Shown here in pieces: positions 6,095-53,400 of a DNA stretch of 64,000 nucleotides. A program made the translations under genes and the position numbers. The notes under the pieces were generated by a model. That model was given only the letters and a program-made list of their open reading frames with translations, was not told where the DNA came from and made no database searches. The DNA comes from Eledone cirrhosa (taxonomy: Eukaryota): contig OZ024761.1 in NCBI GenBank assembly GCA_964016885.1, positions 16,616,001 to 16,680,000 on the forward strand. The letters run 5' to 3'. Each line of letters starts with the position of its first letter. Positions within the stretch are counted from its first letter, which is position 1.

Positions 6095-7013
6095 CTTCCA
6101 ATTTTATACAGGTTTTTTAAATATATCTTTTACAATAAAAATTACCTCTTTTCTACATTTGTTATTGTTGTAGGTGTTGATTTGACTTTAGAAATAATTG
6201 TGACAACTGTGTGTGTGAGTGTGTGTGTGTGTGTGCAAATGTTTGATGTGTATACATGCATGTGTATGTATATATATATATATATATATATATATCATTA
6301 TCGAGCCCTCATCGGATATTGGCCTTCATAATTATTATTATTACTATATATATATATATATATATATATATATATATTATTTTATAGAAGGAGCTTCTAC
6401 AGGACTAGTACTGTTTCATTCAGATGAAATCTTCAGGAAGCATTCCTGAAGATTTCATCTGAATGAAACAGTACTAGTCCTGTAGAAGCTCCTTCTATAA
6501 AATAAACAATTTTACTCTGCCATGTATTGAGTACCTTACTTACTGTGGTTATCCCCGACTCAACCCGGGACCTACGTATATATACCTGTATCGGTGTTGT
6601 ATCCTGGGGTCTTACAACATAGTCACCCTCATCTAGGTGCCCTGACTACACGACACATCATCAGTGTTGTATCCTGGAGTAGCTGGGGGTCTTACAACAT
6701 AGTCACCTTCATCCAGGTGACCCAACATCAGTGTTGTAGCCTTGAGTTACTGGGTGTTTTTTTGTGGTCTTACAACATAGTCACCCTCATTCAGGTGACC
6801 CAGCCAAGGTTGATCAAACCTCAGCCAGTGTCCAAGAGACAGACATACTACTGACCCCACCGGTCACTTCACTCCAGCCATAACCACCTAGATGCCCTCT
6901 GCTTGTTCCACATTGATTTCAAGTGCCCCTCCATATATATAAACACACACACACACACATATATATCTGTACATGCATGCAAGCATCTGTGTGTATATAT
7001 ATATATATATAAT

Positions 7014-7350
7014 GGAGGCACATGGCTTAGTGGTTAGAGCATTGGCCTTGCAATCGAAAGGTTGTGAGTTCAATTTTCAGACCGGGTGATGTGTTGTGTC
7101 CTTGAGCAAGACACTTTATTTCACATTGCTCCAGTTTACTCAGCTGTAGAAATGAGATGATAGGGACTGGGGTCCCTATCATTCCACTGCAAAGTGGTCA
7201 TGGAGGTGCCACGGCAAAAAAGCACCCAGCACTCACTGTAAATGAGGTTGGTGTTAGGAAGGGCATCCAGCTGTAGAAATCAAGCCAGAATCAGTTCCCG
7301 TCCCACCCTTGCAAGCAGGGAAAAGTGGATGTAAAATGATGATGATGATG
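7014..7350 (+). mobile_element. tRNA-derived SINE family A, full-length
   Basis: Same sequence as the copies at 384 (+), 12765, 43105, 49835 and 56980 (-); (GAT)n tail. Confidence 0.88.
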
Positions 7351-50400: not shown

Positions 50401-53400
50401 CACATAGGCACACACATATACAAACCCACATATACAAACACACATACAAACACACACTCAGACACCCACATAGATAACATTCACACATACACACAGATAC
50501 ACGTACATATACATGCATCACATACACACGCATACATACACACAGACATTTACACACATACACATACACGCACACCGAGATACACACACATGCATACATA
50601 ACATACACACTCGCACCAGCTGGGTTTCACTGCAGTTTTATTATTGATAATTTCCGCCGATACACCCCGCTGTTAGTTTATTGTGTTGTGCAATGTTTTT
50701 CCACTCCAGATTTTTCTTTGTTTGTTTCAGTTAATTATGAAGGACCATGGCAGTATTGTACCTGCAATTGTTGCACACCCTTCAAAGTAAGTCCACTGTC
50801 TTGATTTATAAACTCTTGATCAGAGGCATAACTAGGGAAAATAGCGCCTATGGCAAGCAGTGAAATTGTGCCCCTGCCCAGCAGTGCATTTTCGCCTATG
50901 GGCCTAATCATTTATATAAATGGTTTAACTCTTTAGTATTTACATTACTCTATATTTAGTATTGTATTTTTGTGGTAAAGGTGTTATCTCACATAATATC
51001 GAAGCTATGAGATTTGGATATTATTTATTTTGAGAACAATACTTTAACATCAGTATGAGTGGCCAGTTACGACCAGTTTAAACAGAAAGCAGTAAGAGAA
51101 TTCTGGCTGGATATGGCTGGTTTAAATGCTAAAGGGTTAATGATCCAGCCACCATAGTGTTCTCACCCATCACAATCAGAGACAGATCATACATCTGAAG
51201 GAGTTTCTTTTTTCATTCCTCAATGAGGCTTATTTGACTTTAATAGAACGTGCTCCTAGTGCAAGTGGCACCCCCTTCATATGACACCCATGGCACATGC
51301 AATGCTTGCCATACCCTAGTTATGCCTCTGCTTTTGATACCAACCCACTAAAACTATTCAATATAAAACTCATGAATGCATTTACGTACCTGCTATGTTA
51401 GAGTGAAAACTAATTTAGTGTTCACTCTAGCCAGCTGTAAAATTGCTTGGTATGAAAATTAGGCTAATCAGCTGATGTATACTTTAGAGAATACTATGTA
51501 TTCTCAAGAGTTCTCGTGTGTAACAGACAAGAGAGATACAGAATCTTGACAAAGGGCAATAACCCAGAAACAATATTATTGTCAATTCTTCTCTCTGTCA
51601 CAGCTAAAACAAAAGTATGACGATGGTCGTCTAAAACAGAGGTGCCCAACAACCAGGTCAAGGACCAGTACCGGTCCATGGATCATTTGCTACCAGGCCA
51701 CAAAGAAATAATTAACTTGTTTAAAATTATATAATAGATAAATTGAATATTGGACTTTAATTTAAAAAGATTTGTCTAAATATTCAATATTCATCTACTC
51801 AATAAAACTTTTTCTTCCCTTTAAAAAATTGCACTTTTTATTATTGCTCCCTTTATCAAAATGCACTTAAATGACACATATGTGCAGCTACTGGTCCACG
51901 GAAAGGTTGTCCGGCATGAAGCCGGTCTGTGGTATAAAAATGGTAGGAGACCACTGGTCTAAAACACAGTGTAATCAGGCTGTTTGCTTGCAAATAAATT
52001 AAATATTATTATTGTTATTCAATATAAAACTCACGAATGCATATATATATATATATATATATATATATAATTAGAATGTGAAAAACACAATATATAACTA
52101 CTCCATTACCAAAGGTTTTAGGATTCCAGACAATGTTAACATACGTCTGGATCGTTCATCAGACATAACCTCTCTGTTTGATGAATGGTCTAAACATATG
52201 TTAATATTGTCTGGCGTCCTGAAACCTTTGGTAATGGAGTATTCAATTCAATTCAATTCAATATAATTGTTGGCAGAAATTAAAACATAGATGCTTCAGA
52301 TGCCGTGTAAGGAGGGGAGGGGAGGGGGAGGGGGCAAAATTTACACAGTCCGAAACACGGTGGTCCAACACCGGTCCAATTTCACCTTGAATTGTTGCAC
52401 GGTTGACGTGCGTTGACTACTTCTTCTGGAAGCCGATTCCAGGGTCCAGAGATGCGGATCGAGAAAGCAGCTTTCCGTCTATTTAGGCGAAAGTGGCGGT
52501 GAAACAGCTTTTTTGTCATGTCCACGTAGACCCCTTTCAAGTGCCGGAGTGAATCGGAGATCTTGAGGGAGATCGTAATGGAGCAGTTATATATTGTGTT
52601 GTTCACTCTCTAACTAAATAGCTCTGTTCTACACATAGAGCACTCTTTTTTTCCTTTGCTTTTTCTTCGGAATTACCTAACATATATATATATATATATA
52701 TGTAGATATATATATATATATATATGTAGATATATATATATATATATATGTAGATATATATATATATGTAGAAGTTCTATTTAATTTGTTGGGATACAAC
52801 AAGCAAATATTTTTATAACTGATATAAAGCACTCAACAAATTTTTGGAGTAAAAATACGATATATTAACAAATGGAAACTATATTTATTTCATTATACAT
52901 ATTTCAAGGACACCAAAGCAAATTATGGTGCGCTTTCATCAGATAAAATATAATATAATATAAAATATAATATAAAATATAATATAAAATATAATATAAA
53001 ATATAATATAAAATATAATATAGATCAGTTTTATAAACAAATATTTTATCTGATGAAAGCGCACCATAATTTGCTTTGGTGTCCTTGAAATATGTATAAT
53101 GAAATAAATATGGTTTTATAAATATAGTTTCCATTTGTTAATATATTGTATATATATATATATATATATATATATATATATATATATATATATATATATA
53201 TATATATATATATATATATATATGGTTTGTTATGTTGCAGGCCATTACTGCTGACTGGTTGTTATAGTGGGTTCCTGAAACTCTGCAATTACGAAGAGAA
53301 GTAAGTAATTGTCATCATCATCATCATCACCAACACTACTTTCATTGCCATCGTCATCACCACCATCATGACCATCACACCTTTCATTACTATCACCACC

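Follow-up and report, generated by a model that had tools for sequence, protein, structure and literature searches.

Hairpins of 110-290 bp that lie within microsatellites of a 64-kb window of Eledone cirrhosa DNA (the window being the whole stretch analyzed, 64,000 nucleotides long) fall into five families and are probably severely 5′-truncated insertions of Penelope-like elements (PLEs), in which a mirror arm was made at each insertion and the predicted hammerhead motifs are passengers. Hairpins and hammerheads together likely represent an insertion type that has already been described, namely PLE debris with inverted ends. The new leads here are a tail motif shared across four families and a copy that starts at a predicted cleavage site.

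Results

Palindromes and Their Microsatellite Flanks

All seven long palindromes of the original prediction were recovered by masked self-BLAST, and a separate repeat search was swamped by microsatellites. Each palindrome is oriented head-to-head, with a palindrome at the inverted junction. H1 (6378-6504) lies in (TA)n, 287 nt past the INO80E stop codon, and is followed by H2 (27896-28114), H3 (29829-29986), H4 (44368-44478), H5 (46499-46620 in the self-BLAST, annotated as 46503-46616), H6 (52099-52241, within an element spanning 52072-52241) and H7 (52857-53149, with an AT-rich repeat as its loop). Substitution divergence between arms was 0% for H1, 4.9% for H2, 3.8% for H3, 14.5% for H4, 1.8% for H5, 16.2% for H6 and 1.1% for H7, the arms of H7 differing additionally by a 14-nt indel. 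H4 and H5 belong to one family and H6 to that of H2 (66%), and further copies of four of the five families are present inside the window; the claim of several distinct families is supported. An arm of H3 also resembles, with 70% identity across 63 nt (E 0.001), the 3′ part of the element at 30277 that carries a solo hammerhead. Separately, a SINE forms a head-to-head palindrome of 370 bp at 25302-25672, so PLE-like families are not the only repeats that form fold-backs in the E. cirrhosa genome.

The palindromes had been said to adjoin (TA)n tracts. At least three TA units were found within 15 nt of 16 of the 18 element ends, compared with 13.7% of random positions, a comparison that is partly circular because the ends were chosen by us and some tail ends were placed at the start of a tract. 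This part of the claim stands for most ends; the exception is H5, which is flanked by (GA)n and (ATC)n. Apart from the microsatellite itself, no duplication of host flank was observed. Target site duplications are not readable inside microsatellite flanks, and the window contains no direct tandem of pLTRs.

One-sided Tails and Related Copies

Five of the seven hairpins carry a tail of 55-90 nt on one arm only: H1 (6505-6578, + strand), H2 (27833-27895, −), H4 (44289-44367, −), H5 (to 46701) and H7 (52770-52856, −). One-sided tails recur in other family copies for H1, H2, H4 and H5, but not for H7. In all five tailed hairpins, representing four families, a motif of the form RCTC-N11-18-GAGY-RCYY starts 6-10 nt beyond the end of the palindrome, for example at 6514-6536 (H1), 27865-27889 (H2) and 52827-52850 (H7). 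The motif forms a weak stem-loop over a short palindrome, closed by an A-T pair or, as in H2, by a G-C pair; its stems were anchored by hand, MAFFT having left them unaligned, and a single change between families is all that underlies the covariation. The stability of the stem-loop was unremarkable (z of −1.2 to +0.2 in six of seven cases and −2.4 in one), and in two of the seven the best fold was another helix. No previously described PLE tail motif was found in the open-access main texts of the literature.

The same families also occur in other forms. A stump of the H1 family lies at 5884-5983 (+), beside an H3-family stump at 5799-5882 (+; 80% identical to the H3 arm), and an H2/H6-family stump with the tail motif (52621-52645) lies at 52571-52680 (+). 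Tails alone were found at 46344-46420 (+; in (GA)n/(CT)n, tail motif at 46355-46384) and, from the H4/H5 family, at 44662-44735 (+). An older, degraded member of the latter family at 46786-46955 (−) retains a tail and a remnant fold-back, and an H1-family copy at 1068-1170 combines an inverted segment with a tailed 3′ segment in direct orientation. A further insertion between (TA)n tracts (63715-63985, +; tail motif at 63909-63937) has no relative in the window. The first base of the copy at 5884 is exactly the base that follows the predicted H1 cleavage triplet (6474), whereas the match of the copy at 52571 starts 3 nt before the predicted cut. The suggestion that these families insert as hairpins thus holds only in part, given the plain stumps at 5884, 5799 and 52571 and the inversion-plus-deletion copy at 1068-1170. 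Because such copies exist, and because turn points vary between copies, the mirror arm was likely made at each insertion.

Representation in Reads

Summed word depth, which is a signal of repetition and not a copy number, reached 2.1-4.0 million in the X1 reads for the H5 family, the only hairpin family compared with reads, as against 10.6 on the exon. The corresponding value for the family of the solo hammerhead at 46986 was about 0.97 million, and both families are also present in a second species (X5). A short 3′ end of the H5 family at 46623, followed by (TA)n, was observed in 92 contigs of X1, 3 of X5 and 3627 reads of X15. Depth also continued to about 46700 alongside the short end, and two 3′ end classes are apparent. 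Ten of the 15 joints listed, from a total of 113, were arm-to-arm or arm-to-tail skips with differing end points. The 24 loose ends listed, out of a larger set (975 others), did not accumulate at the cut predicted for H5 (46603).

Predicted Hammerhead Motifs

The core pattern CTGANGA-N5-35-GAAA occurs 10 times in the window, compared with 2.2 ± 1.65 times in 100 shuffles, none of which reached 10; here, H1 and H7 count double and the right arm of H2 is missed on account of its 39-nt spacer. A strict hammerhead descriptor gave 5 matches against 0.13, its best enrichment, although these include H7 twice and two AT-rich U3-A8 matches (46250 and 23641) that are probably due to chance. H1 and H2 escaped the strict descriptor because their stem II begins after a mismatch. 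Cores at 9217 and 62209 were not returned by it and were dismissed as chance occurrences. A core at 11615 is doubtful; stem I is 1-2 bp long at both 11615 and 30277.

Four hairpins had been credited with cores. Strict cores are present in both arms of H1, H2 and H7, but neither arm of H6 is intact, each having one core change. Well-formed hammerheads among the hairpins are confined to H2 and H7. The type I motif in the right arm of H2 (core at 28020, predicted cut after 28078) has a stem I of 6 bp, a long stem II and a stem III of 3 bp, with pair probabilities of 0.60, 0.87 and 0.36, respectively, when the arm is folded alone; the left arm is degraded. Comparison of H2 with H6 shows that core and stem III were kept, whereas stem II and its loop differ. 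Each arm of H7 bears a type I hammerhead (53050, +, with a predicted cut after 53098; 52942, −) whose stem I measures 8 bp and whose stem III is palindromic and of the dimer type; folded alone, the right arm of H7 gave probabilities of 0.59 and 0.96 for stems I and II. The H1 core, CTGAAGA..GAAAC-A-GUA, is found in both arms (6446-6473, +; 6409-6436, −). Stem I is missing and stem II is weak, its segment giving 0 kcal/mol when folded by itself, and the H1 motif may never have been a working ribozyme. In H5, only a 3′ hammerhead half remains, comprising a stem III of 5 bp and GUC but no CUGANGA; H4 retains a decayed version of this half (GAAAC..long stem III..GUH), and H3 has no hammerhead.

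Two solo minimal hammerheads, also predicted, were borne out by the core pattern and descriptor scans. The first (30168-30277, −) is antisense to CFAP251 and has a 3′ part that ends in (TA)n, a palindromic ACGU stem III, a GUC triplet and a stem I of 1 bp. The second (46981-47033, +, core at 46986) lies sense in CFAP251, belongs to a very high-copy family, and has a well-formed type I fold with a stem I of 4 bp, a stem II of 6 bp, a palindromic AGAGCU stem III and U at position 17, its predicted cut being after 47020. Among the 40 of 129 variants listed for this family, common ones change N7, loop II or position 17 (U>A), and stem I is lengthened by one of them. A joint that goes back 49 at this motif was seen in a single X4 contig, too slender a basis for a retrozyme reading.

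Rfam hammerhead models cover canonical forms and are not known to cover minimal ones. The Rfam check that accompanied the original prediction gave it no support: matches to miRNA models in simple repeats dominated the window scan, and no hammerhead was among the 150 of 295 matches listed, nor on two short stretches. The exact patterns of the H5 half-hammerhead and the 30277 motif were found at 0 loci in metagenome and viral contigs, and open-access main texts yielded nothing specific on octopus hammerheads or fold-backs.

CFAP251 as Host Gene

The identity and strand of CFAP251 (WDR66; 26254-64000, +) were confirmed. Exons were matched from 26416 to 62559, covering amino acids 8-916 of 1142; the start was assumed from a Met in the open reading frame at 26182-26310, and the gene runs beyond the end of the window. 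Three sense-strand motifs do lie within it, as claimed (28020, 46986 and 53050). By contrast, the proposed concentration of hairpins in its introns was not upheld, since 6 of 7 hairpins fall in a gene that makes up 59% of the window (P = 0.146); the result for PLE-like insertions was similar (14 of the 19 listed; P = 0.14). Masking of the ribozyme by the antisense arm was supported by folding, in which the ribozyme stems have a pairing probability of about 0 inside the full hairpin. Given that masking follows from the head-to-head geometry, it is no evidence of regulation, and the hairpins give no reason to suppose special regulation of CFAP251.

Discussion

A PLE origin is well supported by anatomy: the head-to-head palindrome, the one-sided tail, the (TA)n targets, the type I motifs and the two classes of 3′ end in reads. 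The link to PLE coding sequence that had been envisaged was not obtained. A Pfam scan of 24 chosen open reading frames matched only an ADAT2 deaminase, with no PLE reverse transcriptase (RT) or GIY-YIG domain, and no remnant of a reading frame was visible by eye in three short upstream stretches.

These observations can be accommodated by the following insertion model. The GIY-YIG endonuclease of a PLE, whose preference for such targets is established, would nick (TA)n or another microsatellite. Reverse transcription would then begin at either of two 3′ positions, so that the end is either short or extended by a tail of 55-90 nt; here, the end classes come from H5-family reads and the connection to RT is borrowed from PMC11167929. 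Synthesis would stop after about 55-110 nt, just past or within the hammerhead, and self-priming, as proposed in PMC3846280, would copy the arm back to the short end. The predicted outcome is a tail on a single arm, matching 5 of the 7 hairpins.

For H4 and H5 at least, the hairpin could instead be the master copy of a non-autonomous fold-back element that is mobilized whole by a PLE protein, the mirror arm having taken the place of the hammerhead's 5′ half. The turn points of H4, H5 and the degraded copy at 46786-46955 lie immediately 5′ of one shared CCAGAA/CTGGAA block, with a spread of ∼6 nt, and none of the three copies has CUGANGA. Left-arm depth is of the same order as right-arm depth, although 7993 X1 records fit two places and the arm depths are consequently inseparable, and the 24 loose ends listed, out of a larger set (975 more), include none that is common and lies 5′ of the arm. 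However, the centers of H4 and H5 are unlike in length and sequence despite 84% identity between the two, many different joints occur in the reads, and a long stem II would by itself fix the snap-back point. Such an element is considered unlikely.

Less probable still is a later origin of the mirror arms, in already inserted copies, through fold-back repair or replicative template switching in fragile (TA)n tracts and without PLE enzymes. The SINE at 25302-25672 is likewise a head-to-head palindrome, and all hairpins lie within microsatellites. Such events would nevertheless have to account for the head-to-head orientation of all seven, for mirror arms that stop, in each of the five tailed hairpins, at a short end set by the family and 6-10 nt ahead of a common motif, and for the duplication of microsatellite flank with no other host flank.

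Non-LTR retrozymes replicating as circular RNAs, as the original prediction also allowed, share type I hammerheads with a palindromic stem III and derive from PLE pLTRs (bioRxiv 10.64898/2026.07.22.740005), but the window has no tandem unit with two hammerheads in the same orientation, and its sense cores are single and from different families; this origin is highly improbable. Nor is there more than the faintest chance that the host has retained the hairpins as a means of controlling CFAP251 pre-mRNA by masked ribozymes and editing: three sense motifs are intronic and repeat editing is widespread in cephalopods (PMC9068888), but there is no enrichment in the gene, the arms decay freely (up to 16%, with unpaired changes and core mutations in H4 and H6), masking needs geometry alone, and the sole unmasked sense motif (46986) has U17, needs a dimer partner and has no family copy in the window. 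The near-perfect palindromes H1, H5 and H7, with arms only 0-2% apart and no read or contig spanning H5 among those listed, are just as improbable as library or assembly fold-back artefacts, given that H2, H3, H4 and H6 share their anatomy with arms 4-16% apart, that the H7 arms are separated by a repeat loop and differ by a 14-nt indel, and that opposite-strand joints of the H5 family also occur in raw reads from another study (X15, with few distinct starts).

Under the preferred reading, that of truncated PLE insertions, the arms point outward, so the antisense arm would be transcribed before the ribozyme arm, and a long helix is expected to trap the motif whichever way the hairpin is oriented. 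Such silencing both ways could explain why introns tolerate these insertions. On this view, the CFAP251 hairpins would amount to inert debris within introns and, as with other inverted repeats of cephalopods, would likely serve as ADAR substrates; editing of the hairpins is plausible by analogy with PMC9068888. Octopod genomes appear rich in perfect PLE-derived hairpins of 100-300 bp, which would constitute a source of double-stranded RNA for repeat-directed ADAR editing.

The tail motif and the cut-site copy bear on what defines a PLE tail and on whether PLE hammerheads cut in vivo. Cutting of PLE template RNA by its hammerhead in vivo is not known to have been demonstrated. Tentatively, and with the balance somewhat against it, the motif, common to four octopod families that otherwise do not align, may be read by the RT/GIY-YIG protein and so fix the short end, as the stop of the mirror arm or the start of reverse transcription; the copy at 5884 would be a genomic fossil of cleavage in vivo, and the very high-copy H4/H5 family may in addition have turned into a non-autonomous element of hairpins only.

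Comparison with Known Systems

The non-LTR retrozymes resemble the present insertions in being non-coding and PLE-derived and in bearing a type I hammerhead, yet they are defined (bioRxiv 10.64898/2026.07.22.740005) by at least two consecutive hammerheads in tandem units, which are absent here.

With minimal type I hammerheads (PMC4209133), which include dual motifs 100-700 bp apart on opposite strands, our motifs share the CUGANGA/GAAA/UH core with an extra base after A9, the palindromic or tiny stem III (30277, 46986 and H7), opposite-strand pairs at such distances and widespread single copies. They differ in the stem III of H2/H6 (3 bp, monomer-type) and of H4/H5 (5 bp), and in position 11.1, which is U in the families of H1, H2 and H7, where the G10.1-C11.1 pair is lacking.

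In PAc Poseidon of Anolis (Frangieh et al. 2024), two 3′ end classes separated by a tail, a stem-loop in the initiation region and AT-rich targets are likewise found; in vitro, that element could dispense with cleavage by its hammerhead, and none of the RNA-seq reads ended at the cut site. The RCTC..GAGY-RCYY motif that crosses families here is not described in the accessible part of that account (PMC11167929).

Finally, Arkhipova et al. 2013 (PMC3846280) and Craig et al. 2021 (PMC8557442) describe EN+ PLE insertions with an inverted 5′-truncated copy and a one-sided tail at (TA)n targets (PMC8557442) and with palindromes at the inverted junction (PMC3846280). Whole inserts in the present window are only 110-380 bp long and have no open reading frame, and their tails are longer (55-90 nt) than the published 30-40 bp. 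By contrast, 5′ truncation, the head-to-head inverted copy, the optional tail at one end and the microsatellite (TA)n targets, which hide target site duplications, are common to both.

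Palindromes, families and flanks

Self-BLAST of the octopod window with simple repeats masked recovered all seven of the palindromes reported in the original prediction, the observation being, overall, largely real. They are H1 (6378-6504), H2 (27896-28114), H3 (29829-29986), H4 (44368-44478), H5 (46499-46620), H6 (52099-52241) and H7 (52857-53149). The same search returned a degraded partner of H5 (46811-46924), a small imperfect palindrome without a relative in the window (21187-21238; 81%) and, between the deaminase gene and CFAP251, a head-to-head palindrome at 25302-25672 (89% over 372 nt) in which a SINE-like repeat is joined by a second, inverted copy of its own 5' portion. 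Thus, fold-backs are also found in repeats other than Penelope-like elements (PLEs).

All palindromes have head-to-head geometry, and in five hairpins one arm only is extended by a tail of 55-90 nt. The two arms differ by 0-16%, from which H2, H3, H4 and H6, at least, would appear to be old genomic structures. The predicted (TA)n tracts adjoin 16 of 18 hand-picked element ends, compared with 13.7% of random positions, a comparison that is partly circular.

Local BLAST and alignments within the window placed the hairpins in five families, in line with the several anticipated: H1 with 5884 and 1068-1170; H2 and H6 with 52571 and 29999; H3 with 5799 and 30277; H4 and H5 with 46786-46955 and 44662; and H7 by itself. 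Family members also occur as plain, non-inverted stumps and as one inversion-plus-deletion copy, which speaks against the palindrome as a fixed unit; the mirror arm was likely produced anew with every insertion, and the proposal that these families insert as hairpins needs to be restated accordingly. A GC-rich stretch of 280 bp (52290-52570), with no window relative and no clear ORF, lies directly 5' of the H2-family stump 52571.

Hammerhead motifs

The hammerhead core pattern occurs 10 times in the window, compared with 2.2 in shuffles. The right arm of H2 gives a complete type I fold (stem I of 6 bp, a long stem II, stem III of 3 bp and a GUA triplet), and its relative H6 has one core change per arm, different in each. 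In both arms of H7, stem I is 8 bp and stem II 3+6 bp, and stem III is palindromic and of the dimer type. The solo motif at 46986 (+) combines a palindromic stem III with stems of 4 and 6 bp, yet has a U at position 17, and that at 30277 (-) shows the minimal core in textbook form, its stem I being 1 bp long. In H1 the core letters are present without stem I and with stem II nearly absent. H4 and H5 have only GAAAC and a 5-bp stem III, with the triplet retained, and their fold-back centre sits at the expected place of stem II. H3 has no hammerhead motif and is similar to the 3' portion of the 30277 element. The proposed Rfam scan gave no hammerhead among the window matches listed (150 of 295) or in two short stretches.

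Masking of the ribozyme by the antisense arm, as originally suggested, was reproduced in predicted folds: the probability of the ribozyme pairs was 0.0 inside the full H2 and H7 hairpins, whereas stems I and II reached 0.59-0.96 when the arms were folded alone. Such masking is automatic: with outward-facing cores, transcription from either side reaches the antisense arm before the ribozyme arm. The effect is thus uninformative on host use.

Reads from the H5 and solo-hammerhead families

Four sequencing runs were compared with 46502-47300 at 80% likeness. In run X1, the signal of both families exceeded that of the adjacent exon by approximately five orders of magnitude, a value that reflects summed depth and not copy number; both were also present in a second species (run X5). 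Many H5-family records stop at 46623 and continue into (TA)n and others reach ∼46700, giving two 3' end classes. Among the joints listed (15 of 113), 10 connect the left arm with either the right arm or the tail, at varied positions, the pattern expected had other copies turned elsewhere; no piece spanning H5 itself was among those listed. Among the rows listed for the solo family (40 of 129), frequent variants affect N7, loop II and position 17, where A replaces U, and one extends stem I by one pair.

A shared tail motif

In all five tailed hairpins, representing four families with no mutual BLAST link within the window at E≤0.01, the sequence RCTC-N11-16-GAGY begins 6-10 nt beyond the palindrome end (for H5, measured from the short end at 46623 defined by reads). 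Only 0.28% of window positions have this motif so close. With a trailing RCYY there were 8 + 2 occurrences compared with 0.42 + 0.06 in shuffles, this extended pattern having been defined post hoc from the data and copies within one family not being independent. Nine of these 10 fall in catalogued tails or stumps, and the tenth exposed another (TA)n-flanked insert (63715-63985). The tail stem is closed by an A-T pair in three families and by G-C in the H2 family. As the folded tail hairpin is weak, the motif may be recognized by a protein as sequence instead of acting through a stable fold. No published description of it was found in the literature searched.

The H1-family copy at 5884 has as its initial base the one that follows the predicted cleavage triplet, without microhomology (n = 1). 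The 52571 copy starts 3 nt off the predicted cut, and the H5 reads listed gave no support for starts at the predicted cut. That the tail signal and in vivo hammerhead cleavage both hold genome-wide seems doubtful.

Host genes

CFAP251 (+) was matched exon by exon to Octopus bimaculoides and O. sinensis CFAP251 across 26416-62559. Since the gene covers 59% of the window, the predicted concentration in its introns was not borne out (6 of 7 hairpins, P=0.146; 14 of 19 PLE-like insertions, P=0.14). Regulation of CFAP251 by the hairpins is unsupported, as masking follows from geometry and there is no such enrichment.

One CFAP251 exon start (aa 708-743) has two tandem matches, 58237-58344 and 58364-58537 (+), which suggests that the exon was partly duplicated or that the assembly contains a duplication. 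CFAP251 introns also hold a tandem array with a 61-bp unit (∼40050-41500; related single copies near 32000 and 59500) and multi-kb low-complexity satellites of extreme GC and AT skew (∼33500-37650 and 53650-56600). ORF fragments at 57312-57851, 39417-39824 and 62849-63130 (all -) had no Pfam match; by eye, we take them to resemble C-termini of non-LTR retrotransposon proteins.

INO80E exons (1737-6091, +; 96-100% identical to O. bimaculoides) end at 6091. Because the first AATAAA follows at 6134, H1, whose right end holds the second (6501), is probably just past the main 3' UTR. An intronless, single-exon ORF with a dCMP/cytidine deaminase domain (23938-24480, +), presumably ADAT2, lies ∼1.8 kb upstream of CFAP251 on the same strand. 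A minus-strand gene has probable coding exons at 10662-11555 and ∼12230-12340 encoding a coiled-coil, Q/E/H-rich product; two of its ORFs had no Pfam match. Antisense to it, near an exon acceptor, is a possible decayed minimal hammerhead (11615-11650, +; 4-bp stem II, palindromic ATAT, 2-bp stem I).

Proposed mechanism and comparison with known systems

What the analysis shows is the structures and their flanks, the grouping into families, the end classes and the predicted folds. In the inferred route, a PLE endonuclease would nick the microsatellite, RT would begin at the long or short end, synthesis would halt early and self-primed copy-back would run to the short end. Membership of the PLEs, judged from insertion anatomy, is probable. 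The retrozyme reading is not supported, as retrozymes by definition require tandem units (bioRxiv 10.64898/2026.07.22.740005) and none was seen in the window.

In the cited literature, minimal hammerheads number in the thousands as single copies and also form opposite-strand pairs 100-700 bp apart, with low in vitro activity (PMC4209133, Cervera and de la Pena 2014); O. vulgaris has 31 recently active Penelope-like families (PMC13282606, Bonar et al. 2026), and repeats are widely edited (PMC9068888, Albertin et al. 2022). A PLE tail is bounded by two RT start sites at a stem-loop, and the ribozyme cut only with protein, cutting being dispensable (PMC11167929, Frangieh et al. 2024). Head-to-head junction palindromes have been interpreted as self-priming (PMC3846280, Arkhipova et al. 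2013). PLE insertions are described as 5'-truncated, with an inverted and likewise truncated copy alongside, (TA)n targets and an often single-ended tail of 30-40 bp (PMC8557442, Craig et al. 2021). The hairpins share the head-to-head inversion, one-sided tail and (TA)n targets of those published insertions, although their tails are longer (55-90 nt), and are likely further examples of the same type; what exceeds the known PLE picture is the tail motif and the start at the cut site.
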